This document shows, piece after piece, positions 1-55,661 of a DNA stretch of 64,000 nt. Below the pieces are notes generated by a model. That model made no database searches, was not told where the DNA came from, and worked only from the letters and a program-made list of their open reading frames with translations. This stretch comes from Marsupella aquatica (taxonomy: Eukaryota > Plantae > Marchantiophyta), in the NCBI GenBank assembly GCA_973895155.1, contig OZ316896.1, positions 7,263,278 to 7,327,277 on the forward strand. Reading direction: 5' to 3'. Position numbers and translations under genes: made by a program. Position 1 is the first letter of the stretch, and the number at the start of each line of letters is the position of its first letter.

Positions 1-3000
1 AAGCTGAATTGACCCATTAGCATAAACCTGGTGAACAACATAAGGACCCAACCACCGAGTATGCAACTTGCCTGGAAAATGAGCATACCTACTGTCATAG
101 AGTAATACCAGTTGTCCAGCAAGTAAAGAAGTTGGCTTCTTCAACTTCTTGTCATGATGTTGCTTCACTTGAGCTTGCTTCTTCTTCACTTGCTTGCTTG
201 CCTCTTCCCGGATTTCCTCCAACTCCTCCAGCTGGTAAGCTCTCTCCATTAAACTCTGGTCAGCCTCCATTCTCTCCTCCACACTTACCCTCAAAGTAGG
301 CACTTCAAACTCAACAGGTACAAGGGAGTGTTGTCCAAATACTAGGTAGAAAGGACTATGGCCGGTTGTGGTCTTGAAAGCAAGGTTGTAGGAGTACACA
401 GCTGAGTATAATTTGTCATCCCAATCAGTCTTGTGTGCCGCCACGGTTTTGTTCAAGATCTTGCCAATGATGCCATTAGCTCTCTCCGTTAATCCATTGG
501 CCTTGGGGTGATAGGGGGTGGTCTTCCTATGCTTAATCAAGTAATGGTTAGTGAGCTCCTCCACAACTTCATTCAAGAAGTGAGTCCCCCTATCACTAAC
601 CAGCTCTAGAGGTGGCCCAAATCTGGTAAAAATCTGTTGATACATGAACCTTGCTACTGTGAGAGCATTATCCTTGCTGGTTGGTCTTGCCTCTACCCAC
701 TTAGTAGCATAATCAGTTGCAAGAAGGATGTATCGATTCCTTCTAGACCTGGTCACAGGAGTGATGGGACCTATGAAATCTATACCCCACTTCTCAAAAG
801 GTGCAAGAGGTAAGATGGTGGTAAGAGGGTGATGCCTTGAGTGAGCTGGCTTACCTGTCCTTTGGCAAGGGTCACATCCCCTCACAAAAAGACTTACATC
901 CTTATGAAGTGTTGGCCACCAATACCCTGCATCAAGAATTTTCCTTGCTGTTGTTGCACTTGCATAATGGCCACCAGCCTCCTCCTCATGCATAGCTCTC
1001 ATCACAATGGAGATTTCCTTCTTCTCCAAACACCTCCTTAGTCTCCCATCAACTCCTTCCTTGTGAAGGACACCCTTCACCAATAAGTAAGGTCTGATTT
1101 TTCTCAGGAAAACAGCAGCCTCCTCTTGGTTCAAATCTCTTGGTAGCCGGGTTGTGAGAAGAAATTGGATGATATCCAAATACCATGTATCTCCTCCACT
1201 TCCCACATGAAAGAGGTCTTCATCTGGAAACTGATCATCCACCTCCTTCAAGTCCTCTTCTCCTTCAATCCTTGAGAAGAAGTCTGCATTCCCATGCTTC
1301 TTACCAGGCCTGACCCTCACCTCATAATCAAACTCTTGGAGCAACAAGATCCACCTTGCCACTCTACCAGTTACATCAGGTTTATTCACCATATACTTGA
1401 GAGCATTGTGATCAGTATGAAAGACCACCTTATAGCCCAACAAGTAGTGCCTAAACTTCTTACAAGAGTAGATGATTCCTAGAGCTTCTCTATCGGTTGG
1501 TGAGTAATTCTTTTCAGCTGGTGCCAATAGTCTACTTGCAAAGTAGATAGGGTGATCCCTATTCTGGTCATCAAGTTGACTAAGCACCACACCAATACAA
1601 AAGCCAGACACATCCACATACACATGAAATTCTCTACTCCAATCTGGTGCTATCAAGATAGGGGCTTCAACCAACCTGTTCTTCAACTCCTGAAAACTTG
1701 CTAGCCTCTCAACTGAGGGTTCAACCTCAGCCCCCTTCTTAAGCATGCTGGTTAGGGGTAAAGCTACTTTAGCAAAGTCCTTAATGAACCTTCTATAGTA
1801 GTTTAAACATCCCAAGAATCCCCTCAACTCTGTCACTGAAGTTGGAAACTTGACAGCCATCCAAACAGCAACCTTCTCTTGGTCCACTTCTATGCCCTTC
1901 TTGGATACCTTGTGGCCAAGTAGTATCCCTTCTTCCACACCAAAGAAGCACTTCCCTGGGTGAAGCTTCAAACCAACTTCCCTACATCTTTGGAAGGTCA
2001 TCCTCAAATGTTCAACATGGTCCTTCCCCCTTCCAAAAACAGCAAAGTCATCTATGAATACTTCCAAGAACTTTCTCAAGTAGTCATGAAAGATATTCAT
2101 CATCAACCTTTGGAACATACCAGGGGCATTACAAAGACCAAAAGGCATCCTCCGAAAGGCATAAATCCCCCACTCAGTAGTAAAGGCTGTCTTCAACTGG
2201 TCCTCCTTCCTTATCCAAATCTGGTTGTAACCTGAGTACCCATCTAGGAAGCTATACACTTCCCAACCAGCTACTAAATCAAGTACCATATCAGTAAATG
2301 GAATGGGATAGTGGTCCTTCTTAGTGGCCTCATTGAGTTTCCTAAAGTCTTGGCAAACTCGGATCTTAGGCTTACCATCCAAGCCTGGTTTCTTTGGTAC
2401 TATGACAATTGGAGAAACCCACTCACTATTCAACACAGGATAGATGAAACCTGCTTCCAGCAATTTGTCTATCTCTTCCTTCACCATCAAGGAGTACTTG
2501 GGATTCATCCGATATTGCCTTTGTCTCACAGGTGAAGCTCCTAGCATCAAGTCGATTCTATGCTCACCAAGTTCAGGGTTTACACCAGTAAGATCCAAGT
2601 GACTCCAAGCAAACACATCCACATATTCACCTAGCAAATCTTGGATAGTTTTCTCTTCACCTGATCCCAGGGCATTTCCCAAGTTGAAGGTCTTGTCTTG
2701 CTGGACAGAGATGGTTCTGTACTGCTCAGCTCGAATCACCTCCATCTTGTTCCTCATTGTGGAGTCAAAAGTGCCCTCAAGTTGTGCCAACCTCATGCCT
2801 CCATAGACGGGTGCATTTTCAGCACTTAACTCCTCCTTCTCCTTGCTTGAATGCTGGTCTTCCTGAGTCTCATCCTCCTCTGAGTTTGCAGCCTTCAATT
2901 GGTCCTCTAGCTCCTTTATCTTGAGCTTTAACAAGGCTAAGTGCTTAGCCTTTAACCTCTGGTCATTACTCCTTGTCTTGATCTCAACTTGGGCAGCACC

Positions 3001-5904
3001 CTTGCTGGTCTGATCAACCTCCTGAGCCATTGTGATAGTGTCTTCTTGGTTGCTCTCCTTGGCTGAGGTCTCAGCCTGCTTCACCTCCTCGAGACTGGTC
3101 ACTTCACTGAGACTGGGCAGAGGTGAATGGCTGGTAAGAGCCTCCTGCTCTTGCTCCTCTCCAAACACTTCTTCTTCAGTCCATTGGCTCACCATGTTCA
3201 ACATGTATACCTCATCCTCATCAGATTCAGATTTGGTACTCAACTCATCGGAAAGTTCAGAATCATATTCATCCAACTCATCAGTAGTCTCTCCTTGATG
3301 CTTGTCATGACCCCATGAAACTGAAGTGGCTGGTTTGCCAAACCTAAACTCCTTCTTGCCCCAATCAGACACTACTTTGGCTCCATATAGCCAAGGCCTC
3401 CCAATCAAGATTGGGTAAGTAGATGGCCTTGCTGGTCTCATCACCAAGTAATTCAACAAGAACTCCTGCCCCCCAATGAGAGTAGGTACTTGAGTAAGTG
3501 TCCCCACCGGTAGCACTCTTGCTCCATTTGCTAGCCTCATTGTCCTTGCTGTTGGCTGAAGTTTCTTGAAACCTAGTTGTTGGGCAGTAGCCTCAATCAT
3601 GATATTCACACCTGAGCCTCCATCAACTGGTACATACGAGAGTACACACCCATTTACTTGAACATCAATCTCAGGTGCTCCAAGGTCTTCACAAACCATC
3701 ATCACATCAGCTGGGGTACCAACCTTTGGAAGCTTCCTTCTTCTCCTTCCTACCAACATCTCCTTCAGTTGCCTCCTATACAAAGGGTTGTCTTTGATCA
3801 GCTGCCCCACTGTAGCAGTAACCAAACAATCTTTCACATCCTTCTTGATGTCATAAGAGGGTACCTTGCTGGTCTCTTTCTTCTCTTCCACCTCAGCTTT
3901 TTCCTTCAAAGCTTTAGCAACCTTCAGGTCTTTGTTGATGGCCTCTTGATGCTCCTTAGCCTCCATCTCCTCTAGTTGCCTCTTGACTTCCTCATTCACC
4001 TTGGGATAGAAGAGCTTCGGATGGTCTCTCTTGTAGTCACTATCTTCAGCTGGTGGGACTTGAACTTCTGCTCCAACTTCAACTTCGATTGGTGACTCCG
4101 TTGAGTGCTCCTTTCTCTCCTTCCTCTTCTTCCTCTCTTCCACTCTTTCCTTCTTTCTTGTGGACCTGGTAGACACCTTGTAACACACAGCTTCCTCCTC
4201 AGGTGTCTCCATTCCTGGTAGATCTGGCTGGTTCTCCCCACCAGCAACTTGTGTCACTCCATCTTTGGCCTCCTCTTGCCACTCCATACTCAAGAAGTTC
4301 ACTGTGGCTTCACCGGGAGCCTTGGCAACCGCTGGTGGTGGTGCTTCTATCCTTCCTATCATCATCTTGGCAGCAGATCCAATAGGACAGTTGGCTGTGG
4401 TATGACCCTCCCTTTTGCACACAGCACAAAGAGGATAGGGAGCTCCTTGTCCCTGCCTCCTTGGTTCGGGGCAACTGTTGGAATAGTGCCCTGGTTTTTG
4501 ACAGTTCCAGCAGATCACCACGGTAGTTCTTGCCACTCCCCCAGGTCCTTGAGGTCCCATTTGATCCACCATCCTTGGTTGAAGACCAGGCATCAGTTGA
4601 GGTGCCATGGGTGGAGCTGGTCTTCCTTGCAAAGTTCTTGGGCCTCCTGAAATCTGGTACACCATCTCCGGGGCTTCTTCATAGAAGTAGTCCACCACTT
4701 CACTTGCTTGATAAACATCGTTGGACTCTTCATTGACATACTGAACTTGATTCCTCCAACCTTGACACTCTTGAGGTGTATGGCCAAAACTCTTGCACTT
4801 GACACACCATACATGGGCTCTATTCACCGGCACTTTTCTCCTATCAGGTTGCACACCAGCAAAGTGAACTGATAGGGCCTTGAGTTGGTTGGTGATCTCA
4901 CTCATCTTGTTATCCATCACCTTCTTCTCCTTGGTTGCTGGTGTAGAACCTTCCACCAAGTTGAAGGTTGCAGATTTGTGGTGCTTACCACCTGGCTTCT
5001 TCTTGCTGGCTCTCCTCTTCTGGTCGCTTTTTCTCTTTGCCTTCTTCTTCTTCTTCTTCTTCTTCTTCTCGGAGTCCTCCTCAGAATCAGATTCTGAATC
5101 AGAACTGGAACTACTCTCCTCAGATTCCGACTCAGAAGTATCCTCAACTGAACTACTTGATTCACTTGAGCTAGAAGAAGAATCACTATAAGCAAATCGC
5201 TTCTTCTTTCTCCTACTCTTGGAACTAGAGATCTCAGCACTCCTATAAGACTGAGCCGCCTCAATGGCCTCATCCAACGTATTAGGGTGAGATTGCCTTA
5301 CTGAGACACCCATCTTCTTGGGTAGGCTTGCCACAAACCAAGCCAACAACATGGAGTCTACTGGTCTGGGGTCAAGCTTGGTAGCTAACCTTTGAAACCT
5401 TTGCAGAAACCTCCTTACTGACTCCTTGGATCCCATTCTGATCTCTCCCATCTTGATCAGAGCTTCCGATTCTTCTCCCACCTTCCTAAACTCCTGCAAG
5501 AATGCTAGCTTGAAGGCATCCCAATCATTCTTGATGGCATTTGATAGGCTATTGAACCAAGGTCTTGCTTCTCCTCTCAAGACCCCCGCCAAAGTGGTCA
5601 ACTTAATATCAAACTCTCCATTGGCTTGGGCTGTCCCAATGAAGTCCTCCAACCAAGCATCAGGATCCTCCTTGGGCTTGCCATGGAATGTCTTGTACTG
5701 AAATCTTGCTCTTTGAGTCACCACCATGGCTGCTTCTTGATCTTCACTTGTGTTGGTAGTGGAAGAAGATGTATCACTCCACCCTACACCAGGTTCCGCT
5801 TCAGCTTGCAAATGAATGTCCACCCAATCTGGTTGCTCCAACTGGTCACCAAAGTTGAAACTAAGAGAGGCTTCTTTTAGTGCTTGACTCCTTGTAGTGG
5901 GCAT
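1..5904 (-). CDS. gag-pol: Gag-Pol polyprotein (three CCHC knuckles, aspartic protease, RT, RNase H, integrase), open off the left edge
   Basis: ATG at 5904 (MPTTRSQA) is in frame with the integrase C-terminus at position 1 (...VYANGSIQL). The ORF track lists no stop-terminated ORF in this frame. Motifs: VDGGSGVN (PR), FIDDF (RT), VYVDVSG (RH), PFEKWGIDF and LVSDRGTHF (INT). Confidence 0.92.
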   Translation of the reverse strand, partial: MPTTRSQALKEASLSFNFGDQLEQPDWVDIHLQAEAEPGVGWSDTSSSTTNTSEDQEAAMVVTQRARFQYKTFHGKPKEDPDAWLEDFIGTAQANGEFDIKLTTLAGVLRGEARPWFNSLSNAIKNDWDAFKLAFLQEFRKVGEESEALIKMGEIRMGSKESVRRFLQRFQRLATKLDPRPVDSMLLAWFVASLPKKMGVSVRQSHPNTLDEAIEAAQSYRSAEISSSKSRRKKKRFAYSDSSSSSSESSSSVEDTSESESEESSSSSDSESDSEEDSEKKKKKKKKKAKRKSDQKRRASKKKPGGKHHKSATFNLVEGSTPATKEKKVMDNKMSEITNQLKALSVHFAGVQPDRRKVPVNRAHVWCVKCKSFGHTPQECQGWRNQVQYVNEESNDVYQASEVVDYFYEEAPEMVYQISGGPRTLQGRPAPPMAPQLMPGLQPRMVDQMGPQGPGGVARTTVVICWNCQKPGHYSNSCPEPRRQGQGAPYPLCAVCKREGHTTANCPIGSAAKMMIGRIEAPPPAVAKAPGEATVNFLSMEWQEEAKDGVTQVAGGENQPDLPGMETPEEEAVCYKVSTRSTRKKERVEERKKRKERKEHSTESPIEVEVGAEVQVPPAEDSDYKRDHPKLFYPKVNEEVKRQLEEMEAKEHQEAINKDLKVAKALKEKAEVEEKKETSKVPSYDIKKDVKDCLVTATVGQLIKDNPLYRRQLKEMLVGRRRRKLPKVGTPADVMMVCEDLGAPEIDVQVNGCVLSYVPVDGGSGVNIMIEATAQQLGFKKLQPTARTMRLANGARVLPVGTLTQVPTLIGGQEFLLNYLVMRPARPSTYPILIGRPWLYGAKVVSDWGKKEFRFGKPATSVSWGHDKHQGETTDELDEYDSELSDELSTKSESDEDEVYMLNMVSQWTEEEVFGEEQEQEALTSHSPLPSLSEVTSLEEVKQAETSAKESNQEDTITMAQEVDQTSKGAAQVEIKTRSNDQRLKAKHLALLKLKIKELEDQLKAANSEEDETQEDQHSSKEKEELSAENAPVYGGMRLAQLEGTFDSTMRNKMEVIRAEQYRTISVQQDKTFNLGNALGSGEEKTIQDLLGEYVDVFAWSHLDLTGVNPELGEHRIDLMLGASPVRQRQYRMNPKYSLMVKEEIDKLLEAGFIYPVLNSEWVSPIVIVPKKPGLDGKPKIRVCQDFRKLNEATKKDHYPIPFTDMVLDLVAGWEVYSFLDGYSGYNQIWIRKEDQLKTAFTTEWGIYAFRRMPFGLCNAPGMFQRLMMNIFHDYLRKFLEVFIDDFAVFGRGKDHVEHLRMTFQRCREVGLKLHPGKCFFGVEEGILLGHKVSKKGIEVDQEKVAVWMAVKFPTSVTELRGFLGCLNYYRRFIKDFAKVALPLTSMLKKGAEVEPSVERLASFQELKNRLVEAPILIAPDWSREFHVYVDVSGFCIGVVLSQLDDQNRDHPIYFASRLLAPAEKNYSPTDREALGIIYSCKKFRHYLLGYKVVFHTDHNALKYMVNKPDVTGRVARWILLLQEFDYEVRVRPGKKHGNADFFSRIEGEEDLKEVDDQFPDEDLFHVGSGGDTWYLDIIQFLLTTRLPRDLNQEEAAVFLRKIRPYLLVKGVLHKEGVDGRLRRCLEKKEISIVMRAMHEEEAGGHYASATTARKILDAGYWWPTLHKDVSLFVRGCDPCQRTGKPAHSRHHPLTTILPLAPFEKWGIDFIGPITPVTRSRRNRYILLATDYATKWVEARPTSKDNALTVARFMYQQIFTRFGPPLELVSDRGTHFLNEVVEELTNHYLIKHRKTTPYHPKANGLTERANGIIGKILNKTVAAHKTDWDDKLYSAVYSYNLAFKTTTGHSPFYLVFGQHSLVPVEFEVPTLRVSVEERMEADQSLMERAYQLEELEEIREEASKQVKKKQAQVKQHHDKKLKKPTSLLAGQLVLLYDSRYAHFPGKLHTRWLGPYVVHQVYANGSIQL

Positions 5905-6010
5905 GCCACTCACAATCACCTTCTTATCTCCCTTCTTCTCTTGAACAGCAAACCTGCAAACACACCTCCAAGTCTTGTGGCTCCACTCCAACAAAAACTG
6001 TAAAGAGTTG

Positions 6011-6028
6011 TCCCCGGCAGCGGCGCCA
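6011..6028 (-). promoter_or_regulatory. Primer-binding site, tRNA-Asp-like (Athila-type)
   Basis: Minus strand reads TGGCGCCGCTGCCGGGGA, 8 nt inside the LTR end, near-identical to the Athila PBS TGGCGCCGTTGCCGGGGA. Confidence 0.85.
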
Positions 6029-6036
6029 AAAACAAG

Positions 6037-9000
6037 GGTGGGACTCTATGTCAAACACTTGCCAAGGAGCTTAAGCGGCTTTTCTCCCCAAAAGACTACC
6101 TAATACCTGCTCCATGTCATACCAGGGTCACAAAGGATTGACAAAACTTCTGAAGTGTGCTTACAATGTCCAATCACTCCATACATAAGTAGTTTCAACT
6201 CTCCACTTCTAGAGAGGTAGTCCCCTTGACTACTTTTGTACTCACCCCTTCCCCTCTCCTCTACTCCAAGGATCAGCAAGGGGGATCTCCGCTCCAAGCT
6301 GTCACCTTAGAGTAGATTCTCACACAAACACCCAAGAACCCAAAGTACTTTCCTCTTCAAGCTTAAGTCTCCTCAAGACCCTCAAAGTAGTGTTACCCCT
6401 CAACCTTGCCCCCCTGGCCTTGGTTTGGGTCCACACATCCCCTTTGAGCCCTAGAGAAGGCTCCTCTATCTAAGGACTCTTCCTCTTGTTCTTACTTCTT
6501 GTTAACACCACACACCAAGCAAAGTACTTTCCACCCTCAAGCTATAATCCTCTCTAAGTCTCAAAGTAATGCTATACCTTAACCTTGCCTCCTTGGCCTT
6601 GGTTTTGTACTAGCACATCCCCTTCAAGCTTAGACCAAGATTATACCATAGCATGGACTCTTCTCTTGCTCTCATATACTTCAAATGCACTCACACTTAA
6701 TGGTCACAATGAAGATTGGTAAGTCTCCTTTTATTGCATCACCTTTACAACAAAAGTTCACTACACATTCTCCACACTAAGCATGGACCACCTCTCCTTT
6801 CTCAAGCTTAGCCCTACCTTGGCAAGGTAGAGATTTCACTTAAGAGATGAGACTCCCGGTCCCTAACAAATGAAAACTTCCTCCTTATATACTATCTCCT
6901 TCCACATCACACCAAGCTTGACCTGGGGTCCAACTATACCTCCCCCAAGTCCTCCTAACACACAAAGTCCAACTCTATAGTTCATAGCCCACCCTACTAC
7001 TTGCTATTTTGCCTCCTTCCAAGCCCTGGAATATGCCACACATGAGTGGTATGCTTTGACTTCCAAACCTACTCCCACTTATGGTCCTCCTCACCAGCTT
7101 ACCAACCCACTTGAAATCTCGCAAAAAGAGTGAGTGAGTCTCAAGTTGTGCCTAGTCAAAGTTGGCCTTATTTTACTTGTAACCCCTTTACTACCCTAAG
7201 TAAACTACCCCCTATATTTACTTTTCTTAACTTGATGGCCTTACACCTTTGGCCAAAGGTAAGTACCCTTCTCTAGAGCCTAACTCAAGTGGTATGGGTG
7301 CAAGAAAGGTCAGCCCCTAAATCTGGTATTCATTCCCCTATGCCGACTTTGGTTTGCAAGTTGTCGGGACTCCCTCGTGGCCTCGGTTAAAAATATATTT
7401 GAGTGATTACTTTTCTGGGGTTCCACCTTCACCAGGGGGTGCCTTATCTTCCCCTAACTCAGCACAAAAAAATTTGGGCCCCAACGGATACCTCTAGCCA
7501 AAGTTATGCCCATTCTCCCAAGGCCTGTTTTTGGTGTAAAGCGGGTGTAAGCGGCGGCCCGATTACACTTACCTTACATGCCCCTTATGGGGATTCCACG
7601 TGTCATGAGGGGAGAGCACTCTCATTATACTCATGTTTCTTATGAAGAAATTGTAAGGACAGCAATGTTTGCAGCCATTTCTCTCTCGTGAATTCAATCT
7701 AAAACCACAGCATTCTCTATTGGATTCTTTCTTGTGCAGCAGTCCAGCTGATCAGCCGCCAGCCCCTCAATTTCACAGCCACCATAGCTCACAGCCAGCC
7801 TAGTCAATTTCGCAGCTAGCCCACCTCTTCAATTTTGCCGCTAGCAACACAGTCAATTTCGCAGCTAGCAGCACAGTCACATCAGCGCATTTACAGCACA
7901 ACAACAGCAGATTTGAAGCACAGCAGCAGCAACCATAGCTTGATTCCTTCTCAGTCAAGCAGGTCTCTCTTCTCAATTTCGTAGCTGCCCACCTTTGCAA
8001 TTTCGCAGCTAGCAGCAGCATCATTCAATTCAGCAGCATCAAGGCAGCAGCCAGCCAATTCTCATGAGCATCTCGTGCCTGATTAGTAGGAGCACCTCTA
8101 ATCTAGTGTGCAGCTGTCATAGCAGCAAGCAGCCTTCCCAATTCAAAGCCAGCAGCGATCCTAATTTGCAGCCATAGCTCTTTTCCTTCTCAGCAGCCAT
8201 AGCTTCTTCAATCAGCAACAGCCCTTGCTTCTTCAATCAGCAGCAGCCATTTCAATTCAGCCGCCCTTCCTTCAATTCAGCCGCCCTTCCTTCAATTCAG
8301 CCGCCCTTGTGCTCAATTGATTCCTCAAGTAATCATGCAGCACCTTTGGACAGCCTCCCGGTGCTTGACGTCCTCACCAGCCTCGTGCTTGCTCCTCCTT
8401 GCCTCGTGCTCGCTCCTCCTTGCCTCGTGCTCGCCGCGTGATCGTCGCCCACGCGGTTTACACTTAGAAAAAAATACATTTTTTTTTGGAAAAACAGCAT
8501 TTTGGGGCGATTTTGGACCCCCCTCCAAAACTCACACATAAGTCCAAAAGGACTTCTGAGTAGCTCCACTGATTCTATGGACATAGGACTATGTCCGGGT
8601 TTACTAAGATATAAACAAAACCCTATAACAACTTTTCTAAAATTAGGCAAAGAGGGTCAAGTCTTTATGTCTTCCAAAATTCTTCTCAACTTTGAGATGC
8701 TCCCAAAAAGTAACCAAGTGTGACAAAGTTGTCCCACAAGTTTCTAGGGATAGAGGGGACCATACTTAACCCACTTCCAAACTTGGAACCCCTACATTTA
8801 CCCATCAGCTATTTTTCCCGGGACCCGCTATTTGGTAACTTTGATTTTTGCCAAAATACTTATAACTCCTAGGTTAAGACCCCACTTGACTTCATACTTT
8901 TTCAGGGTTCCCTAGGGACCTCCCAGCACCCATGGGAGAAATATCAGCCAAAAATAAGATGTCCGGTGTCGGGTCATTTTTCGGTCCCGACTTAGTCGCC

Positions 9001-9231
9001 TATTATAACTAAGGACGGACTAGTTTCCTGCCCCTCCTATAGTAACTTGCTTACCCCTAGATAACTTTGCATAACTAAATTCCCTCTTACCTCTACTAAG
9101 CTTCCCTTCTTACTTAAGTGCCCTAAACCTAGCTACTCTGATAGCACTAAAACTTTTTCCCTAACTATTTCCTCTTCTAAACGAAAGAATGTCATGTTTC
9201 TCTACACTAGCTGACACTGAGCCATCCCACA
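6037..9231 (-). repeat. 5' LTR of family 1 (~3.2 kb, non-coding, with internal tandem repeats)
   Basis: Starts TGTGGGAT at 9231 and ends GTCCCACC at 6037 (imperfect terminal IR) next to the PBS. Contains a ~180-bp duplication (~6330-6670), a 20-bp x3 repeat (~8252-8308) and a 21-bp repeat (~8380-8432). The partner LTR is not in the window. Confidence 0.7.
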
Positions 9232-10845
9232 ACGGAGCTCACAAGTGAAGATGGTACAAAGGGACCTGTAATTATGGTCGTACACATGGGCGCTGAAAGT
9301 CAGCCACCCTGTGCTTATTCTCCGCATTACATCAGAACAGACCCATGCTCCTTCCAGCTCACCTCCACTCTTCATCTGCCTGAGAATATCGACACCAGAA
9401 CTTGGGCCATTTGTACTCATTTTGAAGACATGAGCCCTATCGGTCTTGCTCCCCTGCCCAGGGAAAAGGTACCTCTGAACGTAAGGAAAATTATTCCGTG
9501 CTTGCATCTCACGAAGAGAATCCAACTCACCCTTTTTTGGGTTATCCATTTTCACGCTCCGGAATATGGCCTGGAATTTCTCAACAGTGGACACAACCTT
9601 CATCGATTCCCAAATCTCTCTCTCTTCTTCTTTTGATAGTTCTGAAGAAGACTCTGGATGCAAAAGAGAAACCAGGTTTCCTATAGACTTGTTAAGAACA
9701 CGCCCTGGCGTACACACGGGATTCGCTTTATGAACACCAGAAACTATCTCCTTCGCCTGCTTTTTTGCCAATCGAGATTTCCCCTTCCAAACAACGTGGT
9801 CATGGAAACCCATGTGAACAGCCAATCGAGACATATGTTTCACAACATTTGACTCAAGAGACGGCTTAGGATAGACATACAAAAGCTTAGCCGGACATTC
9901 ACGGATGCAGAGAGGCCTCTCCTCACAGAATCCGCACACCAACCCTCCTTCCTCCACAAGCTCACCAAGATGAAATGGCTCAGTAAATTGTCCCTTTCCT
10001 CGGAAGGAAGAGTCATTTTTTGAACCGGTGTGCTTCAACTTTCTACAGACCAGATTTTGGCATTCAAGTACACCGGCACATCTGACTTTTGACACAGACC
10101 AGTGATTGCGAGGTTTGAGATTAGCTGAAGTTGTGAGAAGTCTCGTCCATGGATAGCCGTCATTATCCCTATCCATGTCCTGAAGACCATATCCTCAACG
10201 AAATTGACCTTCCACCGGAGGAAGCTCAAAAATGCAGTTTCCGTTGTATGAAGTGGGCAAAGTCTGCACTTGAATCTCCTTCCAATCGTTTCCCCTGCGG
10301 AAATTTGCCAACTTGCTTGACCCAGTAATATTGAGAAAGGCATCATATGCACTAACTCGATAAAGAACTGGCTGAGATTGAAACTCGTTTTGACTCACTG
10401 CTTCAAAAACGGATTTCTCAGAAGACTTTGTCGACACAGAAGAGACATCCCTACCCACACTCTCAAGGGAGATGTCAATAATTTCTGGTACTGCAGGTGA
10501 CGGTCGAGTCGGGGATTCTGGATCGGAAACATTGATATGTGCAATGTCATCCTTACATGAGACTAGCTCTACATCTGAACCACCCTTTAGGTCCCAAGCT
10601 CTTTCTGGCAATATTCCTGAACCATTATCCGACACCTCGTGACTTCTGGATCCATCCCGAGAGTAAAGAACGAACAACTTCCAGATGAAATCATCTTTGA
10701 AAAGCCCAAACCTCGATGAGAGAAAAGACTCCTTGACAGAGATAATAGTATTCTCCGGAACATCCAGAACAACAACATCACCCGTCGTCTTTCTCTCGAT
10801 CACAACCTTCGATCCCAATGAAGACATGCTGGAAGTTTTGGACAT
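9232..10845 (-). pseudogene. MULE/Mutator-like transposase copy A with GCM-like Zn domain; one premature stop, 3' part cut off by the Gypsy insertion
   Basis: ORFs 10195-10845 and 9202-10176 share a frame, separated by TGA at 10195-10197. Motifs CAGVLECQNLVC...CGFC...C...HMGFHDH and WVCSD. Homologous to copies at 20-23.7 kb and 38-40 kb. Confidence 0.8.
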
Positions 10846-11020
10846 TACAGTCTACAGCAATCCACAATGTGAGATACTTCGCTCTCTTCTTTCTCCAAAT
10901 ACATATGAGGAAATGTGCTTGTGTAGGTGTTGGACTCAATGTATTTATTTAATAAATGCCTCTTATTCCCGTTATCTGACCGTTATTTTGTCTTATATGA
11001 CTCTATTTGCGGAATGATAA

Positions 11021-11134
11021 AGCTAGCGATCTCGCTAGCTCAATGAACCAAGTAAAATTGTTCAAATCCTTACAAAACACCCTTCAGGAGTTAATGTATT
11101 TAGTGGTCATTTTTTGGCTAGCGATGTCGCTAGC
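11021..11134. promoter_or_regulatory. Two GCTAGCGA-N2-TCGCTAGC palindromes in the divergent intergenic region
   Basis: AGCTAGCGA-TC-TCGCTAGCT at 11021-11040 and GCTAGCGA-TG-TCGCTAGC at 11117-11134. Function is inferred only. Confidence 0.6.
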
Positions 11135-11520
11135 AAAAACATTTCCTCATAAGAGACCATTGTGACCGTTTATATCCGTTGGAATTGGTCAACGGGTACC
11201 TACATGTCAACGGTACGGTACAGTACTGGACACCTGTCTCATTGTCATTAGATACTTTTCTTTCAGTCGTGAGTTTGGTGGTTCGTATTTCCGGAAGTCC
11301 ATGTATACCTGACGTTGTCTGAAAAATGATTGCGAGAAGAGTCGTACAGAATATTTGTATCTCTTTTCACAACCGGGCGCAGCATTCAGGTGAAAGCAAC
11401 AGACGAGGGTACGATTCTGTCTTTGATTGGAAGATCAATTCTCGGGTGTTTTTATGTTCGCAAAGCGTGTCGCCCTCGACCTTGACCTGTTGATACCCTT
11501 ATCACTTCACGGACCCCCTG

Positions 11521-14500
11521 ATGGAGGCATTGTCTTCACCCGAGAGCTTGTCATCAATAGGATCATTCAAGTCAGTCGAGTCAAGCCGAAGGGAGACCAG
11601 GTCTACAGTGAACAAGAAGGCGCTCCAGGCGGGATTGAAAACACCGAGGAGGCCCAAGATGGTGAACCAAGTAGATGTTGTGAATCCTACGTTTCAACCT
11701 GGAGCTTCAGAACCCTATTCTGTTGTCATCAATCGCCATCTTTTCCCTTTTGGAAATGATGAATTTGGATTCCCGCTCGCTCCTCCGAGGATTTCCCTTT
11801 GCAGAATGCGAAACATGCAGATTGTTCGGTCCTTACAAACTAACTCGACTGCGATCGAGACACTCAAGAATGAATTCCGGACGCAGGGATACATCGAAGA
11901 TGCGCCTCGATTTTACGTCCAAATGACCGGCGAAGATGGCCTTGTCCAGATGTGCGAGGATGTGATTCGGGAGTCGTGGGATGACATGTGGATTCTTCAG
12001 AATGAAGAATTCGAGAGGGAATGTGATTCTCACGAAGCTTTCAAAATTTTGAAAGACAAAATGTTTTGTGTTTTCGATGGAAATCATCGTCTGTACTCAT
12101 GGATGCAGCTTGCGGACAAGAATCCCCATGATGTCAAATATCATCCTCGAGTTGTTTGCCGAATTTTCAAGGGTGACAAGAACTCATTCGTGCAGATTGA
12201 GTCGGCAATGCATGCGCTGAATAGGTTTGTTTCTTTTCCTTCAAGCTGTGAATTGTATATAAAATTCTTTCATTTCCTCTTGTTAGCGATCTCGCTGACC
12301 TGTTTCTTTTGCTCAGGTTGACTCAATGTCACGTTGAGAATTCTTGGGTCCTTGAAGCAGAGAGAGTCCACAAGGTTCTCAGTAATGACCTTTCTGTATA
12401 CAAAGATATCATCGATGCAGACAACTACAAACTTTTCCAGCAGAAGATGGCAAATATCAGGAAACCGGCTTGGTATTCGAAGAACATGACACTCGATGCC
12501 TGCACGTACATTCTGTCTGCTGCTAATATTGCAGCGCAGACGGAAGATTTGAAGAAGAAGTTTCAGTTGAAAGAAGCGCAAGGAGAACCTCTTTCAAAAG
12601 CTGCGCAAGACATGGCAGTCAAAGACATGATGAAGGAGCAACTGGCAGATTGGAATGTGAAGGTGCCAAAGATTGGACCTCTCCTGAATCCTGAGTTTGG
12701 TGACTTTTTCCAGAAGTGTGTTGAGATGCACAACTACTGCGAACATGAGAGGAAGGAGGCCCAACGAACAGACGATAAAGGAAGGGGTAATGTGTCATGT
12801 GGTCTCGATCGTGCGAGGCTATTTACGGGTGTCTCATCGTTGACTCCCCAGCTCAGATGTGTACTCCTCGAGGCACAATGCAAACCTGAGCTTCGCAAGA
12901 AGTACTTCCACCCTGGTCAATTCTCGGACAGCGAAACAAAACTTTGGCTTCACCGATGGGCTGTTTGGGAGCAGGTTGAGTCAATTTGTTCTTCGCTCAT
13001 GTCTGAGATTATTTCAGAGTTGATCCCAACTGTTCCAGATGCAAGGATCCTTACTTCGTCTGAGAAGACAAAGCCATCGCTGATCCTTGACATAGAGGAG
13101 GACTTTGAAGATTTCCAAACGAGAGTGAAATCTCGTTTTTTCAAACAGATTTGGCCACCAAAGTCGGGTGAGAAGATTGACATCTCACTTTTTCGGAGGA
13201 GGGCGAAGAGATATACGTATTGTTTTTTTGTGGATAGAGAAGTTGCTGACAAAACATATTGGTGGTCCTATCCTGCTTGCTTCTCGCCTTGGATAGCAGG
13301 AGTGAAAGAGGATCCAACCTCTGTTAAATATGGAGAGTACTCGATGTACCCATGTGAGGGAGTGGAGGCTCCAAGGAAGATGAGTGAGTGGGAAGTCCTT
13401 CACTGTCCATGGTATTTAGAATCAGACAAATGGGCAGTGACATTTGACACAGCAGAGAAGGCAGCATTTCATATGATAAATCGAGGCTTGATACCAGAGT
13501 CGTACATTACAGAGTCCAAATTAGCTCCTGCAGAAGCCGAGGCTGGCGGATGTGATGCAATGGAGAAAGCTGTTCTTGGTGTAGCTGCCATTGTGGACCG
13601 GAGTAGATCGAGGAGACCTCGGAAAGTGCCGGTGAAGGACACGTCCAAAGATGGATCAGTCTTGTCTGGGAAGCAAAGTAAGTCTTTTTCTCCTCTTTTT
13701 TTCATACCTCATTCGGAGGGTAATTTTGTCTCAGTCACCTGTCTGACATTAACATGTTTTTCAGAGAAGAGAAAGGCTGCAGCCTCTGGCAGTTTGAAGA
13801 GTGGGGCGGATGATGGAGAAGAACCCAAGTCTCCTGATGTTGAGGTCACAACAAAATCTGCTGTGGACCTGGGTTCAATCAAGCGTTTGAAGAGGAAGCG
13901 CAATGTCCAAATTCTCTCCGACTCGGATGAGGAGGAAGCATGCGTCGCGCAAGGAGTAGCACGAATGTGTGGTCTTAAGAAGGACGGTGAGAGGCATTTC
14001 TTGGCGAAGAGCAATCTCACGGAAACTGCAAACTCAATTAGCCAGAGGAAAGTAAGACCTCCCTGGATGGGCGATGCGGATCAGTGGTTGTCTGGAATGA
14101 GCAAATCGAGCGAACACCCAAACGCCGTGATGATCAACGGAAAAAATTACGCTGGAATTGGTGCTCACTTGGGTTTCATATTCCTTCCCACGGGTCATCG
14201 AACAAGCGTCACAGACCGGGAGGTCCCGAAGTGGAATGTTTGGAGTGAGAAATTACCATATTATTTCTTTGGAGTCATGCGTCCGATGCTTGCCGATGAT
14301 GGTTATGTCGCAGTTCTTCACAGCTCTGACTATAACCATATGAGGCAAATTTTTTCTGCAGTCGAACAAAAGAACAAATTTAAACATGTCCGGCAGTATT
14401 CGGTTTTGCTTTCATCTCCTTTGTATCAGGCAGATATGGACATCGAGGTAAGATATCCTCCGTATTTTTTGTGCAATTTTTGCTAGCGAGCTCGCTAACC

Positions 14501-15047
14501 AAAAGTGCCCATTTCTTACGTATTATCATTTTCAATTCAGGTGGTTACTCTCATTATGGATATCTTCTGCAAGGTGGAATTCTCGGCAAAAGTCCCGAAA
14601 CATACAGGATATGTTCCAATGACTTCCTCGGAGGATGCCCGCCATAAATTGATGTTGAGTGTTTGCTACCCAAAAACTGATCCCAGTCCCAGGGCGGCTT
14701 TCGCAGGTTCCAATAGATTGTCAGTTGGGTTCATGCAAGCCGTAATGGAGATCCTTACTTTGCCAAAGGACATTGTCATTGACTGGACTGTTGGAGATGG
14801 AAGTGCTTTTGCCGATGGGGAATACGCTGGGAGATTTGTTGTGGGTGTTGAAGATCGAGACATTCTTCATCTGTGTGCACAAAGAACTTTGGCAAATGTG
14901 TTGGATAGACATGCCCAGAAGTTGAAAGGGGCCGCAGACCCGAAGAACGATGATCCCAAAGATGAAGGGTCTGATGATGAGTTCACCATCCCAGGAGATG
15001 ATCAGGGAGGGCCTTCAGACGAGAAGGATGAATTCGACCTGGAGTAA
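11521..15047 (+). CDS. Four-exon gene (~1084 aa): N-terminal ParB/Srx-like domain and C-terminal degenerate beta-class N4C/N6A DNA methyltransferase-like domain
   Basis: Exons 11521-12224, 12317-13677, 13765-14447, 14541-15047. Three GT-AG introns (92, 87, 93 nt) all keep the frame. FCVFDGNHRL is a ParB box-like motif. MRPMLADDGYVAVL and LTLPKDIVIDWTVGDGS...GRFVVGVED resemble the MTase motifs (T.PGD.VLDPF.GSG...GR.FIG.E). Confidence 0.75.
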
Positions 15048-15218
15048 AGCACTTGGCCTTTGATGTAGAACTCCCTATTTGGTGTTTTTCTTTTGTTTGT
15101 AGAATTTTCGGATGTTTAGTATTGATCCGATTCTGGTGATTTCTTCAGTGATAGGCGTTCGGATTGGTTTTCGGAGGAGAGATTCCGTCTTCGGAAAGAA
15201 ATCGAGGATCATTTTCTT

Positions 15219-15488
15219 GTGACCCCTGACAAGGGATTTGCGCTTCCATGCTATGCTGAAAAGACTGCAAAGGAGGTTGATGAAGCGCCCGTCGTTTTGA
15301 CTTGGGAGGGGAAAGGTCTGCGGTCAGTGAGGGGTGTTCGGAAAGCCCTTTACTGCCCTCAGTTCATAGATGATGAGGCTGGGACTGTAGCACAGTATGT
15401 TGACGGTTCGGCTGAGGAGACTGATAGGGAGTCCAATAGCGATCCTAGTAATTCCTCAGATGATTTGGAATCAAAGGATTCTCAATGA
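15219..15488 (+). other. Short ORF or possible extra exon downstream of the ParB-MTase gene, unknown product
   Basis: 89-aa ORF with an acidic tail; no recognisable motif. Confidence 0.2.
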
Positions 15489-16187
15489 CTCATGGTCAAT
15501 TTCAGATGCAATCTCATTCCAGAAGATATTTGTCATACCAAAGTTTTATTAAAGATGGATTGTGAAAGGTTTTTTGACCTGGTTTTGTTGACAGTGATGA
15601 TGCCTTTTCATTCAGTTCAGTGTAGTGAAGATCTCGATTTTTGAGTTTGTGAATATTTAAGTATCTGCATTTTCGTTTTCCTTAACTGTTTCACAGTATA
15701 TATTGACAATCTTACTTGGGAATGCGCCTTAACTACCCTCAGATTACGCGCAAACTTGCCTCGCTAGCCTGCTGTCCTCGCTAGCAAAACTCCTGTTTGC
15801 TCGCACAATAGAATACCTCCATGGTCCTTATTTTGTAATCTGATTAAGTAGGTTGCTGTATGCAAGGAGTAGCTATTGATATTGCATAACAATTAGCAAG
15901 ATGGCAAGAATAAGGGCAATCATGGCGTTAAGAGTAGGGAAATAAAAGCTACGTCGCGGGTGGTCGACGACCATATCTCTTTCAATATGTCATCAAATCC
16001 AGATCTGTAAAGAGCATTGGAAAGATCTGGTCAAGGCGAGTAAAATCGATATAAAACACTCGATAAACGGAGGTGTATTAAGAAAGATATGGCCTGATTA
16101 GTGTGATGGGTTAACTTGTGGCCGGAATTAGCGGATTCGGCTTCAGTTTCGGGTTAACCCAAGCTCGACCATGGCTTAGCTTATGTG

Positions 16188-16369
16188 AGCACGGCTTCAG
16201 CTTAGCTCAGGTCAGCACGGCTTCAGCTTAGCTTAGGTAAGCACGGCTTTAGCTTAGCTCAGGTAAGAACGGCTTCAGCTTAGCTCAGGTCAGCACGGCT
16301 TCAGCTTAGCTCAGGTCAGCACGGCTTCAGCTTAGCTCAGGTCAGCGCGGCCTCAGGTTAGCATAGGTA
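16188..16369 (+). repeat. 26-bp tandem repeat, ~7 copies
   Basis: Unit AGCACGGCTTCAGCTTAGCTCAGGTC, head-to-tail with no spacers. Confidence 0.9.
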
Positions 16370-16961
16370 AGCTCGGATTCGGGCTCAGCTTAGGCTAGGT
16401 TAGCGGATAGCGGATAGCGGGTAGCGGCCTAACCCGAGACCACGGGTTAGCTCTACTCGGGTTAGATAGGATAGCTAGGTTAGCCAAACTCGGGTTAGCT
16501 ATGTAACTCGGGTTAGCGCAGCAGTGAGTACCCCCTCTCGGTTGCGGGGGCATAACTCTCTGTGTATTTGACCAAATTGGCTATAATTGATCTCGTTGGA
16601 AAGAGGAGCTCAAGCCGCTTCCAACGCTGCTATCCACGCAGCAAATGGTTGAATAGAGAAATCGGGAGAGGAGGCGCAAGCTCGCAAAAACCATGGAGGA
16701 GGGCCGAATCCGAAGTACATAGCCAATTCGAGATAGAAATAAAGTTGCGAGTTAGGGTTCAGTAGTTAGAGATAGTGGCGGCTCTGTTAGGGCTGGGATG
16801 GGGCTCCAGCAGCGTAGTATCCACCCATTTGGGCTCAGTATGAGAGTATATAGAGCAGCCCCCGGTAGAGGCAGGGGGGGACTTCAGTTGTGTGATCTCA
16901 CTTAGACTGAGCAGCAGGGAGGAGCTCTGTGCAAGCAAGGCTGGACTTGGACGCTACGTGT

Positions 16962-18853
16962 TGTAGTTTACTATGAAGAACCAAAAACACATTTATAGGT
17001 CTTCAAACTCGGTATTCGTTCCCATAAAGAACAAGATGAGGTTGATTTGATACATAAAAACACAAATGAGAGTTTAAGAACTCTCCTTAACACATAGTAA
17101 TCAGGATTGATTACTTTACTAAGGTATTTTGAAGATCGCTCCATAGCGGTGAGTGGTTTTTAATGACAACTCAGCATCATGTAACCATAAATTAATGAAA
17201 AGGAAATGATTAACAAAACACAAGGAAAAATATCTCAAAGTATGCTAAGGGAGTCTGGAATAGACCAAGGTTACTCCTTAGACATAAGTCAAAATGAAAA
17301 GACTTAAGGATTCAAATCCATATTGTTTTTCAGATCTAAATTGCTTACTAGAGTACCTTTTAAAATGCCGTCAACATGTCTTATCCTTTCTTTCTAAGTG
17401 GTACTCAGATAAGATCTAAAAGGTAGCTACTTTAACATTTAGATGATACTAAGCAACATGAAAGAAAATCCATCAATTTCAAATAAGACTTAAACTCAGT
17501 GAGTTAACTCTAAGAACTCAGGAGATTGTAATGAGTCACCCAAAGAGGAATCTGTCATCACAACTCAAAAGATTTACACAATTGGAATTTTACTTCCCAT
17601 GATTTATTCAAAGGATTAAACCACAAGAAGGAGGAAAGTCTTCTCCTGGTGTCAAGCTTGATCTCGAACTCTTAACATTCATGATCAACTGGCAGAACAC
17701 CAAGGAAAGGCAAAAATTGCTAAACTTTACCATCATCTACACTAGTGGTAGAGGGGTCTTATAGTAAAAATCTACTGAGTGAGAGGTCACAGGGTCGAAG
17801 AGACATGCCTCTTCATACCCCTCAAAATTTTAAAATGGCGATTCAATAAGTGAAAAGCCGGAAAAATGGCTAAGTATGAACTCGTAACTAGTAACTATTA
17901 ACTCGTAATCGGCTGTCTATCGGAACTCGTAATCGGAAACTAGTAACTCTTAAACTAGTAAAAGCTAAGTCGTAACTCGTAATCGCGGTAAAGTAAAGAC
18001 TTGATGAATTCAACTATTTTTAACTTCCTAACTATAAGTCAGAAAACTCTGAGATTTTGCCATGAGGTTTTCCTAGGTACAGACTACATGCTAAATAAGT
18101 ATGACAGCTTCCAAAGCTCTAGAATGCATTTCTAAAAATCAGATAAGATGCACTACTCTAAAAACTAACTAAGAACACTTAGAGACTTCTTCAAGCTTGC
18201 TGTCGGATGTCCTCTGGTTCTAGTAACTCCACAAGGGTAACAATTCGGTTCTGGGTAACCTCTATCAGCTCAGCTTGGCATGGGGATCCTCTGGAGTAAG
18301 GTAGGCATCTCAGTTGTCTCTCAGGATACATCAAAGGCATTCTCTTCATCAAATAACATGAATCTATACGAAGAGCTTCTCTGTACATCCCGATCACATC
18401 ATAGTTGTTGCAGGTAGCAGCATACACTTGAGGATAATGAAACAGGAACTCATCACTACTCATCATCCTGGAATAGAAGGGTCGAAGTCTCCATTTGACA
18501 TCTCTGAAATACCGGTTGAAGCTGGGCAGAGTTTGAGAGGTAAGGTGGAAGAGAAGTCAGTAATGAGCGCCTATGTCTTGCATTCCTTCCCTTTCAAGGT
18601 GAGCTCTTCATCCGTTGTGGAGTCCCATTGAACTAGTTGTAAGATGTCACGATCACAGGGTCGCCAAATCTTAAGGTGTAACTCGTAAAGCAGTGAACTA
18701 GTAAACTCGTAAACTGAGTTTACTCGTAACTTAGGAACTTAGTAACTTTGAATGCTGTTTTAGTTACAGTTAGCAATAATTGCAGTCTAAACACCGTAAA
18801 AAATTTAAAAATTTTCAGTTTCTTCATGCTTTTGGAATTACCCACTACTTACA
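16962..18853 (-). mobile_element. Solo LTR of family 3, internally deleted, retaining the C-terminal piece of an LTR-borne ORF (18191-18466)
   Basis: TG...CA ends with CGTGT TSD (16957-16961, 18854-18858). Terminus CCCACTACTTACA matches CCCACTACTCACA at 42578. SSDEFLFHYPQVYAAT matches NSDEFLYHYPQVYAAT at ~40000. Confidence 0.85.
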
Positions 18854-20139: not shown

Positions 20140-23100
20140 TCAATCGCGTGACACGTTCACATTTATCCTGAGGTCAAACGAAGATGGCACAGATCGACTC
20201 GATCCTGTTGTTCGGGCTAAGACAAGTCCTTGCTCTTTGAGGAACGTGATTTCAGAAGGAGATAGGTTCGTACCCTTCAAAACACGCAAAATTTCAGGAA
20301 GAGGAGGAAGCTGATGAACACCACGACGTGGACGACTCTTATAACAGGTTTGGTTTGGGCAGAACCAAATCATTTCGGAGATCGGTTCGCCCCTGAAGAG
20401 ACGATGGCCCTTCACGACAATTCCAACAACACCGTCAGACGAATGGAAGCCAACCTTCTTGATACGATTTCAACACTCATCGCGATCAGAACTCCCATTG
20501 AGTGTCCCATTACACTGGGGACCTGCTCCATACTTGGACGTCCGTTGCAGTTGCCACTGCCCCAGAGGGACATCCTTCTCGAGCACAATCATGCGTGGAA
20601 GTGGATTCTGAAGTGAGGCTGGTGCACTGAGCGGAGGTTTTGTGGATCTTGTTGTACGGGTTGTTTGAGGGGTATTGTCTAGTGAATCAGTATCACCATC
20701 TGATGTGTCCATACCAGAGAGATTCACCACTCTTGTCACAGGATCATTAGAATTAGAGGGAATGGAGGCAAAGTCAGTTTTGTTTAGGTTTTTCCTTTTC
20801 AAACCATGAGTATTTGGTGTGGTTATGAGAACGGTGTCATGCCGATGGGAGTCTTGTGGAGAGACAGTCCCAGTTGCATGTCCCTTTCTCTTCATTGACT
20901 TGGTCACGATATCTCCGTTAAGGGGAGTACTTCTTTCCAAATCGAAGTCCGCCATGTTGGAAAGAAGCATGTTGGTCGCATCTTCAAATAACCTCGGCGA
21001 ACCTGCTTGATCGGCGGAATGGAACGCCAATTCCCATATAGTCGGTCCCTTTCCTCTGTTCAACCCTTTTCGATATGCACTGTATCCCGCAACTTGAGAC
21101 AGGGCTCGGTTTTGGTCCACTTTGCATGCTTCAAAAAGACCAACTTTTTTCTTTGTAGCCCAGGCTTTCATAGACGCATGCCTTGATTCTGACCCTGTAC
21201 AGTTTGGAATCAAGGCACCTTCTTCTGCGCTTTTGCTCTGCCATACTCCGAATGCAATAATCAGTACTAGCATTGTATTACCAGCGCCCGGCGCTGGCAC
21301 CGACAAGTATTTATAACATACGTGAAATACAATTTAGATTATGATTCTGGAACTTTATGGACATGTTGGACTCAAATACGAGCAAATCATACCAACGCCT
21401 GGCGCTAATATAAAGTTGATGGAAATGAAAGACAAGAGAGGAGATGGATGTCATACCACTCGAATAAAATTGCCCCACTGGCGCCATCAAACAACCCACC
21501 AGGATATCCAGCTTTGTAGCATCATGAGCTTTCCAGGGACACAGTTTCCTGATTGCCACCAAACCACAATCTCTCGGGACACGATACGCTACCACAAACG
21601 TTGGAGCGTTTCTTAGTTTCTCCCAAAGTCTCCGATGTTCCGATTGACATTCTTCGAGTACTCCTTCCTTGGAATGCCAATGGAAAGATTGATAAAAGTG
21701 AAATGCATCAGAGCGCTCCCTCTCCGGGTCTGGGTGTCCACCAAAAAAAACATTCTGCACAGCATTCCATCCAGCTTGTGCATTGTCCGCCATAAACCCT
21801 TGGATGACAACCTCCTGTAATCCATTCTCCTTGCAAACCTCAATCATAACTCTCCAAGCCTTTTCAAAAGACTCAGTGTCTTCACCTTTCAACTCGCATG
21901 TGAAAATTGTACAAAGTGCACGGAAGTTATGGTCGTAGACATGCGCGCTAAAAGTAAACCAATCGGTTGTGATACGCTGCATCACATCAAAACTGACCCA
22001 GGCTCCTTCAAGTCTTCCACCAGGTTGCATCTGTCTCAAAAGATCCACACCGGAACCATGACCCTTCGTGGTCATTTTAAAGATGTGAGGCCTGTCGTCT
22101 TGACATCCCTGACCCGGGAGCAAATACCTCTGGAGAAATGACAGGTTAATCTTCTTCTGCATTTGCGAGAGAAAATCAAGTTCACCCCAACCCTTTTGGT
22201 CTATCCTAACGCTCCGACAAAGAGATGCAAACTTCTAGGGAGTGGAAAGTACCATCAGAGACTTCCATATTTCAGTTTCTTCGATACAGTTTTTGATTAC
22301 TTTGCCACTAAAGATGTTCTAATTCACAATATTGCCACTATTTTTTCTGTATTTATAAAGATGCCACTATTTTGTATACGGATAACAAGTTTACCAAGGT
22401 AACTAGGGAAACTATATACGAAAACCATGACATTTTTGTAAATACAAAACAAATAGTGGCAGTATTATAAATTCAAACATCTTTAGTGGCAATGTACTTA
22501 AAAGTTGTTCTTCGATATCGACCATGTCGTCAACATGTTCGCAGAGAGCTTTCACTATGGACCCTGTAGCAGAATTCAAGATCCCAGCTGGTTTTGCCAG
22601 AGGATTGGCTTCATGATTTTTTTTATTTAAATCCTCAGCCATCTTCTCCGCACTCCTACATAAGGTTTTTCTACCTGGATGGTTATGCTCACCTATATGA
22701 ATCGCCAGGCGGGACATATGACTACATGTTTCCGCATCAAGTAATACTTGTGGGTACATATAGAACAAACGGGCAGGGCAGTACTTGACACAAAAAGGAA
22801 TCTGATCACAATAATGACACACAACACCGCCCTCTTCGATAAAAGATCCGACAGCATACTGACCACTAAGCTATGGAGTACCCTGCCATGCCTTAGCATT
22901 TGCCTTCTTCTTCCTTTGGAAGTACTTGCAGGACTTGTTCCGACATTCAATGAATCCCGTACAGGTAACCTTACCGAATTGCCAAAGTTTTTTCGGCTGA
23001 ACGTTCACGGTAGTTGGAAATATGAGTGTCCAATGTAGCAATCTTTGGCACGGTCCATGTCCCTAAGCCTAGAGCCTTTAGAGAGCATCTTGTCAATGGG

Positions 23101-23709: not shown

Positions 23710-23947
23710 GGAAGAAAAGTCTATGGTAATATGGAGCTTATATCAGTCAAACATGGGAACTTCACGTTAACAGATCCATTTGTATAAGACATAAAACACA
23801 GTCGACATAGGATCCGTTGGCGACATAAATGATTTTTGTCATTTTTCCTCGATAAGTCTGAATGTCAGACGCATACATAATGCCAAAAAAGACACCACAA
23901 AAATCTTTAACAAACTCTAAGATATTGTATAGTTGGAACAATTTGAG

Positions 23948-24360: not shown

Positions 24361-24461
24361 GTATTCCGAGTGAGGGAGGAAAACGGTCATAACGGTAATA
24401 TTTAACGGTAACTTCTGAGCTCTGTGTGTGTTACGCTTCTTCTACCGAATGATTTAGCTAA

Positions 24462-55632: not shown

Positions 55633-55661
55633 GTCGGTTGGAGACTCACTTCTCCTTACCG

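Follow-up and report, generated by a model that had tools for sequence, protein, structure and literature searches.

The window, a 64,000-nucleotide stretch of contig OZ316896.1 from the liverwort Marsupella aquatica, contains two genes arranged head to head: a transposase gene with its ATG at 10845 on the minus strand, and an accessory gene with its ATG at 11521 on the plus strand. An earlier prediction made without database searches (hereafter the sequence-only reading) had placed these starts about 675 bp apart, and we confirm both ATGs and a spacing of 675 bp. Its inference that a DNA transposon carries a eukaryotised accessory gene, combining a ParB-like region with a beta-class amino-methyltransferase (MTase) fold, is supported, the element being multi-copy and the gene lying head to head with a likely Mutator-like transposase. 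The copy in the window is a dead member of this two-gene Mutator-like family, with the following features (SAM, S-adenosylmethionine; LTR, long terminal repeat).

9232–10845 (minus strand): likely Mutator-like DDE transposase, 5' 538 codons, with a TGA at 10195–10197; cut before the second D and the E.
10846–11520 (no strand): divergent intergenic region, 675 bp, with two perfect TAGCG-N4-CGCTA palindromes (11024–11037 and 11119–11132).
11521–12224 (plus strand): exon 1 of the accessory gene, likely ParB/Srx-superfamily domain (residues ~60–235, with DGNHR at 186–190).
12225–12316 (plus strand): intron 1, 92 nt, phase 2, GT-AG, with a one-mismatch palindrome at 12284–12297.
12317–13677 (plus strand): exon 2, a conserved middle domain (residues 236–640) without an assigned family, then a low-complexity linker.
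13678–13764 (plus strand): intron 2, 87 nt, GT-AG, without an in-frame stop.
13765–14447 (plus strand): exon 3, basic linker with runs resembling nuclear localization signals, then the N-terminal half of the beta-class MTase fold, with motif IV (F828-L-P-T831).
14448–14540 (plus strand): intron 3, 93 nt, GT-AG, with a perfect palindrome at 14484–14497.
14541–15047 (plus strand): exon 4, SAM-binding motif I (D997-W-T-V-G-D-G1003), E1020 and an acidic tail, ending in TAA (15045–15047) unless spliced.
15044–15148 (plus strand): likely intron 4, GT-AG, 105 nt, of intron-like composition.
15149–15488 (plus strand): likely exon 5, 113 codons, acidic, of exon-like composition, with an in-frame 3-nt indel among copies.
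15761–15819: subterminal half-sites TCGCTAGC (at 15761 and 15778) and the putative element end at 15819, where contigs have loose ends (15819/15820, three runs).
6031–9231 (minus strand): 5' LTR of a Gypsy element inside the transposase, foreign to the transposon, with its TGT start at 9231 and a primer-binding site near 6030.

Splicing of the first three introns, which preserve the frame as the sequence-only reading had claimed, yields a stop-free product of 1084 residues containing the DGNHR motif. This gene model agrees with the conservation of intron position in relatives and with the placement of indels. Intron 1 falls at the same codon, followed by GTAAGT, in all four related metagenome loci (34–42% identity), and the 31-residue segment corresponding to intron 3 is missing from seven annotated or continuous homologues. 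Most copies in all four sequencing runs covered have a 2-nt deletion in intron 2, and among the 12 of 44 indels listed, frameshifting ones fall in introns 2 and 3 and a 3-nt one in exon 2. A fourth intron is likely, since 15044–15148 is intron-like in composition (GC 0.36, T 0.46), 15149–15488 is exon-like (GC 0.49, T 0.27) and the stop at 15045–15047 overlaps a GT donor. The predicted product would then have 1196 residues, not 1084. The sole sequence support for exon 5 is a weak match to the tail of the Riccia homologue P0115 (E 0.022 among the proteins compared).

As for the transposase, its homologues and two sister copies display the motif order FDVMH...FMAD...DAFH...WRQWG...GSES-x-H, in which the second D lies about 65 residues after the first and DAFH comes 29 residues later, followed by the W-rich motif and GSES-x-H. 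A (C/D)xxH after the second D, together with a W before the E, is what we take to be the signature of Mutator-like elements (MULEs). The window copy retains only the first D of the DDE triad because it is cut at 9232. The N-terminus is rich in Cys and His, a region presumably GCM-like. None of 17 transposase proteins matched the Pfam MULE families and the window transposase had no match in Pfam; one of the 17 weakly matched IS256 (E 0.035), and a PDB search with the transposase profile found nothing. The sequence-only assignment to MULE transposases is thus upheld by motif order and not by Pfam, and we consider the transposase likely to be Mutator-like, by motifs only. The published criteria for MULEs are terminal inverted repeats (TIRs), or non-TIR ends, and a target-site duplication of 8–11 bp (PMC6446971). 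The far end of the present element is separated from the window copy by the Gypsy insertion and falls beyond the limits of the window.

The window contains two sister elements. The second Mutator-like element, at 20470–24420 on the minus strand, is decayed, with 31–62% protein identity by segment to the first and its transposase at ~20470–23680, and breaks off near 24420, at roughly the point where an accessory gene would be expected to start. A long, imperfect inverted repeat inside this transposase (22291–22503) may be a miniature inverted-repeat transposable element. A short open frame at 24420–24880 (minus strand) presumably resembles the N-terminus of a CACTA/EnSpm transposase. The third related transposase (38090–39950, plus strand) is 5'-truncated and adjoins a reverse transcriptase (36290–38170) resembling that of long interspersed nuclear elements.

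Contigs from four of seven runs (three organisms) were placed on positions 7500–17500, at 371 to 9942 per run, a depth that does not equal copy number. They cover all 30 bins of this interval, and both genes, in each of the four runs. Variants of 85–99% identity occur by the hundreds across both genes, and the element is therefore a member of a multi-copy family. Calypogeia fissa has homologues of the transposase and of the MTase region; Riccia sorocarpa has several paralogues of the latter. The MTase region, present as several paralogues per liverwort genome, is matched by 89 cluster representatives at 50% identity (the query being a read-through of intron 3), one of which, P0113, is spurious. 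In a small tree of 21 rows with long branches, from which we draw no origin or direction, the window protein groups with the Calypogeia homologues (99/98), apart from Riccia. With lengths of 1.2–1.8 kb, the four metagenome loci do not reach far enough for a transposase to be seen. P0004, a fragment of a transposase (63%), and P0028, a fragment of a ParB region (65%), each lie on a 5882-bp Logan contig, which is a hint only; none of ten further MTase matches lies on a contig of that length.

The sequence-only picture of a MULE head to head with an intact gene holds for the accessory gene and fails for the transposase, which is broken twice. Its frame has an in-frame TGA at 10195–10197, where contigs read CGA (G at position 10197 in contigs of three of the four runs and part of the fourth). 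It is also truncated at 9232 by the Gypsy insertion, whose gag-pol lies beyond the primer-binding site; contigs with loose ends at 9232 (two runs) extend the frame as homologues do. On the right, the element had been bounded at 15785; loose contig ends put its end near 15819, with an LTR-like repeat beyond. This repeat contains a 26-bp tandem unit in eight copies (16174–16380). The Gypsy element occupies 1–9231 of the window (minus strand), has a 3.2-kb 5' LTR and an internal region in which CpG is nearly absent (observed/expected 0.09–0.25), inserted after the MULE, and shows no differences from the run contigs over 7528–8701.

The C-terminus of the accessory protein is, as judged by profile comparison, a beta-class amino-methyltransferase fold, which bears out the sequence-only proposal. 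Searched against the PDB, the family profile matches DpnA (E 8e-7) and CcrM (1.5e-5), with MboIIA and a cytosine-N4 enzyme below significance. PF01555 is matched at E ≤ 0.1 by 12 of the 31 MTase-region proteins scanned, one of them above the cut-off. HH-align against four phage methylases gives 98.2% over 215 columns, motif IV preceding motif I, with an E-value flattered by the choice of these four for their weak similarity. The same alignment sets F828-L-P-T831 on D-V-P-Y, in the register found when aligning with the DPPY of CcrM, such that F828 sits on the catalytic D and T831 on the Y. Motif IV was then counted in 46 rows (the window protein and 45 homologues, after removal of P0113, P0080, P0120 and P0049). 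Its first position is F in 11, Y in 11, A in 11, S in 4, D in 4 and another residue in 5, while the fourth is T in 33, N in 5, S in 3, another residue in 5 and aromatic in none. This motif IV loss is, on the aligned rows, family-wide and not a decay of the window copy. In both CcrM and N4CMT, motif IV contacts the target through its first residue, which bonds the amine, and its fourth, which stacks the base (PMC10406627); changing SPPY to APPA abolishes N4CMT activity (PMC8885841). Since DPPY has become FLPT and the aromatic residue is kept in 0 of 46 rows, the methylase domain is probably not a writer, and the earlier suggestion that the accessory protein marks DNA loses its footing. SAM-binding positions are retained (D997 in 38/43 rows, G1001 in 36/43, G1003 in 38/43, E/D1020 in 36/40), and a pseudo-enzyme that still binds SAM appears the likeliest reading of this domain.

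The N-terminal domain likely belongs to the ParB/Srx superfamily. Aligned with 12 homologues at 40–68% identity, it shows G-N-H in 13 of 13 rows and R in 12. Weak matches from four libraries converge on this assignment: the atlas clusters for the ParB exon are DUF3723 (0.96, 0.95), with ParB_N (0.92) at rank 22 for 11% of members; DGQHR is matched by 3 of the 13 rows (E 0.002), a ParB-like PHROG by 5 (best E 0.054) and DUF1015, presumably kin of ParB, by one. No Pfam family was found for any accessory exon of the window, and with the ParB exon a PDB sequence search returned nothing and a phage/plasmid search no credible match. No relatives turned up in the viral contigs and prokaryote genomes searched. 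The middle domain (~400 residues) is conserved at 41–47% in three homologues and gave no usable match in the atlas.

The non-coding DNA of the element carries candidate binding sites. TAGCG-N4-CGCTA, with at most one mismatch, occurs four times in the window: two sites are intergenic, one is in intron 1 and one in intron 3. All four fall in non-coding DNA of this element, of which 26% is non-coding, and none of 100 shuffles reaches four. With a spacer longer by one base, TAGCG-N5-CGCTA has eight sites in the window, all within the two sister elements: five upstream of the transposase of the second, and three, spaced by 69 bp, in a transposase intron of the third (39289, 39358 and 39427). Spacers of 2, 3 and 6 gave no TAGCG/CGCTA palindrome in the window. 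Among the metagenome relatives, L002 has two CTCGGC-N7-GCCGAG palindromes in intron 1 of its accessory gene (L002:885–998) and L003 one weaker palindromic site; none was seen in L001 and L004. Such a layout has been reported for VANC targets, and it resembles parS.

Our preferred reading, held tentatively and at slightly less than an even chance, is that the window contains a broken copy of a multi-copy transposon, likely of Mutator type, in which the accessory gene is intact and its predicted product is a DNA-binding regulator that would target its own element and has a disarmed methylase fold. The likely ParB-type domain would help to load the protein at the TAGCG-N4-CGCTA palindromes of the promoter region and introns, and the protein may spread along the element from these loading sites. 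Devoid of its catalytic motif, the methylase-fold domain would be a module for binding SAM or a base rather than a writer. The element might benefit by having its shared divergent promoter kept active, or shielded from host 5-methylcytosine (5mC) silencing, as VANC does for VANDAL.

Several observations weigh against this reading. The head-to-head linkage is seen at this one copy, and none of the listed contigs bridges both genes. The ParB-like assignment made by the sequence-only reading stands on convergent weak matches and was not helped by the fold search: all 13 ParB-domain rows lack a PF02195 match, the model of the ParB exon is poor in both single-sequence and 13-row folds (predicted local distance difference test score 59), and Foldseek with this poor model found nothing at E ≤ 0.001; the best VIA Z was 3.7. 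Moreover, in place of GERRxR the domain has GNHR, with a single arginine, and no helix-turn-helix (HTH) was identified. The palindrome patterns were picked after inspection of the sequence, so the shuffle figures overstate the case; their placement and the split of spacers by family do not follow from the choice of pattern. The sister elements have palindromes and show no accessory gene inside the window. Finally, 27 differences from the contigs are listed in the element (among the 40 of 948 places listed, with polarity assumed); relative to the contig majority, 14 of them are C>T or G>A changes, of which 11 lie at CG or CHG, versus 35% expected (p 0.001). The window copy probably acquired methylation once inserted, also at the codon turned stop, despite its intact gene and sites. 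The CpG observed/expected ratio of the element (0.64–0.73) was considered as evidence of protection and rejected, since other young repeats of the window have similar values.

Palindromes in sister elements without a visible accessory gene make the transposase an equally placed candidate binder. The palindromes could then serve as binding sites for the transposase, and the accessory protein would play no part in chromatin and act as a transposition cofactor that bridges the ends or scaffolds the complex. The half-sites 40–60 bp from the element end, the position of the sister palindromes upstream of or within the transposase gene and the Cys/His-rich N-terminal region of the transposase all fit this explanation. 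However, the full sites are internal, in promoter and introns, and are not arrayed at the end; L002 has palindromes of its own in the accessory-gene intron 1; and truncation of the sister copies falls at the point where an accessory gene would be expected. We regard it as unlikely.

Less probable still, and distinctly unlikely, is a methylase active through a rebuilt active site, writing N4-methylcytosine (4mC) or N6-methyladenine on the element. Besides the SAM-binding residues, P830 (44/46) and P-x-W-N-x-W (W 42, N 44 and W 39 of 48) are strongly conserved, and D occupies the first motif IV position in four Riccia-type rows. The R. sorocarpa paralogues P0105, P0107, P0111, P0115 and P0125, with D first in motif IV (DPPT, DLPS, DMPT, DMPS), would be the best candidates for residual activity. 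Against such an enzyme, F, Y or A predominates at the first position and an aromatic residue never occurs at the fourth, the positions with which CcrM and N4CMT hold the target base and stack it (PMC10406627).

That the accessory gene is a captured passenger of no use to the element, intact only through the youth of this copy, is very unlikely. The window copy differs by ~1% from the contigs that are commonest (6/460 and 2/250 differences), so that its intactness is weak evidence on its own, and gene and transposase are directly linked at one copy only. On the other side, the 89 clusters keep the motifs conserved, liverwort genomes hold several paralogues, an unrelated transposon of Ectocarpus carries the same fusion (PMC12477816), and 6 of the 9 listed coding differences are synonymous (p 0.004–0.018), an excess over the transposase (3 of 11) that is not significant (Fisher p 0.17).

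Elsewhere in the window, nested LTR-retrotransposon segments, 97–99% identical and in both orientations, occupy 28261–35800 and 42579–60500, with an intact gag-pol at 49658–55665 (minus strand). A long imperfect inverted repeat at 60582–60959 measures ~330 bp, and that at 22291–22503 ~210 bp.

The sequence-only reading had taken this architecture to be undescribed, which does not hold. Sola1-1_Ec32 of Ectocarpus carries, on the strand opposite its transposase, a 1104-residue gene that joins ParB-like and N4C/N6A MTase domains (PMC12477816). The likeness extends to a DNA transposon, a gene of ~1100 residues opposite the transposase and the fusion itself, its ParB-like part being only likely here, and is a likeness of description. 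The Ectocarpus element is found in a brown alga, has a Sola-1 transposase and spans 21.5 kb, whereas ours is in a land plant with a Mutator-like transposase, has lost motif IV and carries family-specific palindromes in introns. Red-algal Plavaka elements, and also Chondrus Mutator elements, bear PAG2/PAG3, methylase-SET and ParB-oxygenase genes (bioRxiv 10.1101/2025.02.11.637652). As in our case, PF01555 methylase and ParB-like domains travel on a transposon, and the inverted repeats adjacent to the ParB gene have been suggested as sites for its product; there, however, methylase-SET and ParB-2-oxoglutarate oxygenase are separate genes with tandem-array repeats, and here a single ParB-MTase fusion accompanies dispersed palindromes. 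According to proposals made both in PMC12477816, for the Sola1-1_Ec32 protein, and in the Bostrychia preprint, ParB/methylase accessory proteins would bind the transposon that carries them and modify it; the preprint names VANDAL as the only proven self-binding case.

VANC21 of Arabidopsis recognises motifs located in introns and in the intergenic and terminal parts of its element (PMC5735166), and VANDAL21 resembles our element as a Mutator-like element with an accessory gene and family-specific short motifs in non-coding parts. It differs in its apparently unrelated protein (no Pfam match here), in motifs that are 9-mers grown by tandem repeats, and in that anti-silencing was shown there and is inferred here. 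Bdelloid N4CMT and Marchantia DN4MT1 are eukaryotic proteins that likewise have a beta-class amino-MTase fold derived from bacteria (PMC8885841, PMC10406627, bioRxiv 10.1101/2021.02.12.428880), but they belong to the host, keep SPPY/TSPPY intact and have proven 4mC activity, whereas ours is carried by a transposon, reads FLPT and has an N-terminus that is ParB-like. Bacterial ParB-parS shares palindromic target sites (candidates here) and a G-x-x-R patch in the N-terminal domain (bioRxiv 10.1101/2024.12.04.625172), and differs from our case, which has GNHR in place of GERRxR, no identified HTH and no ParA. ParB-HTH-fused methylases of another group are listed in chlorophytes (Iyer 2015, PMC4738411), and the accessible part of a 2026 preprint on DAM domains in retrotransposons makes no mention of ParB. 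No bryophyte case of a ParB-MTase transposon gene was found in the literature, though subscription papers and bioRxiv supplements may hold closer relatives. The architecture is thus already known; new are the land-plant host lineage, the Mutator-like transposase, the disarmed methylase and the candidate cis site.

A bolder form of our preferred reading, which we think rather improbable, is that Mutator families of liverworts employ a eukaryotic counterpart of parS/ParB: a clamp gated by nucleotide would load at family-specific palindromes whose spacer co-evolves with it and would spread over the element, a dead amino-methylase acting as base-flipping reader or shield against host 5mC silencing. 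If true, plants would have a second sequence-specific anti-silencing system, one that evolved independently and was assembled from bacterial parts. The family offers a land-plant test case, with a named protein, a named 14-bp site and, as a built-in control, a sister family with a spacer one base longer. The family-wide loss of the catalytic motif suggests that the working principle may be binding rather than methylating, which would alter the reading of the algal cases.

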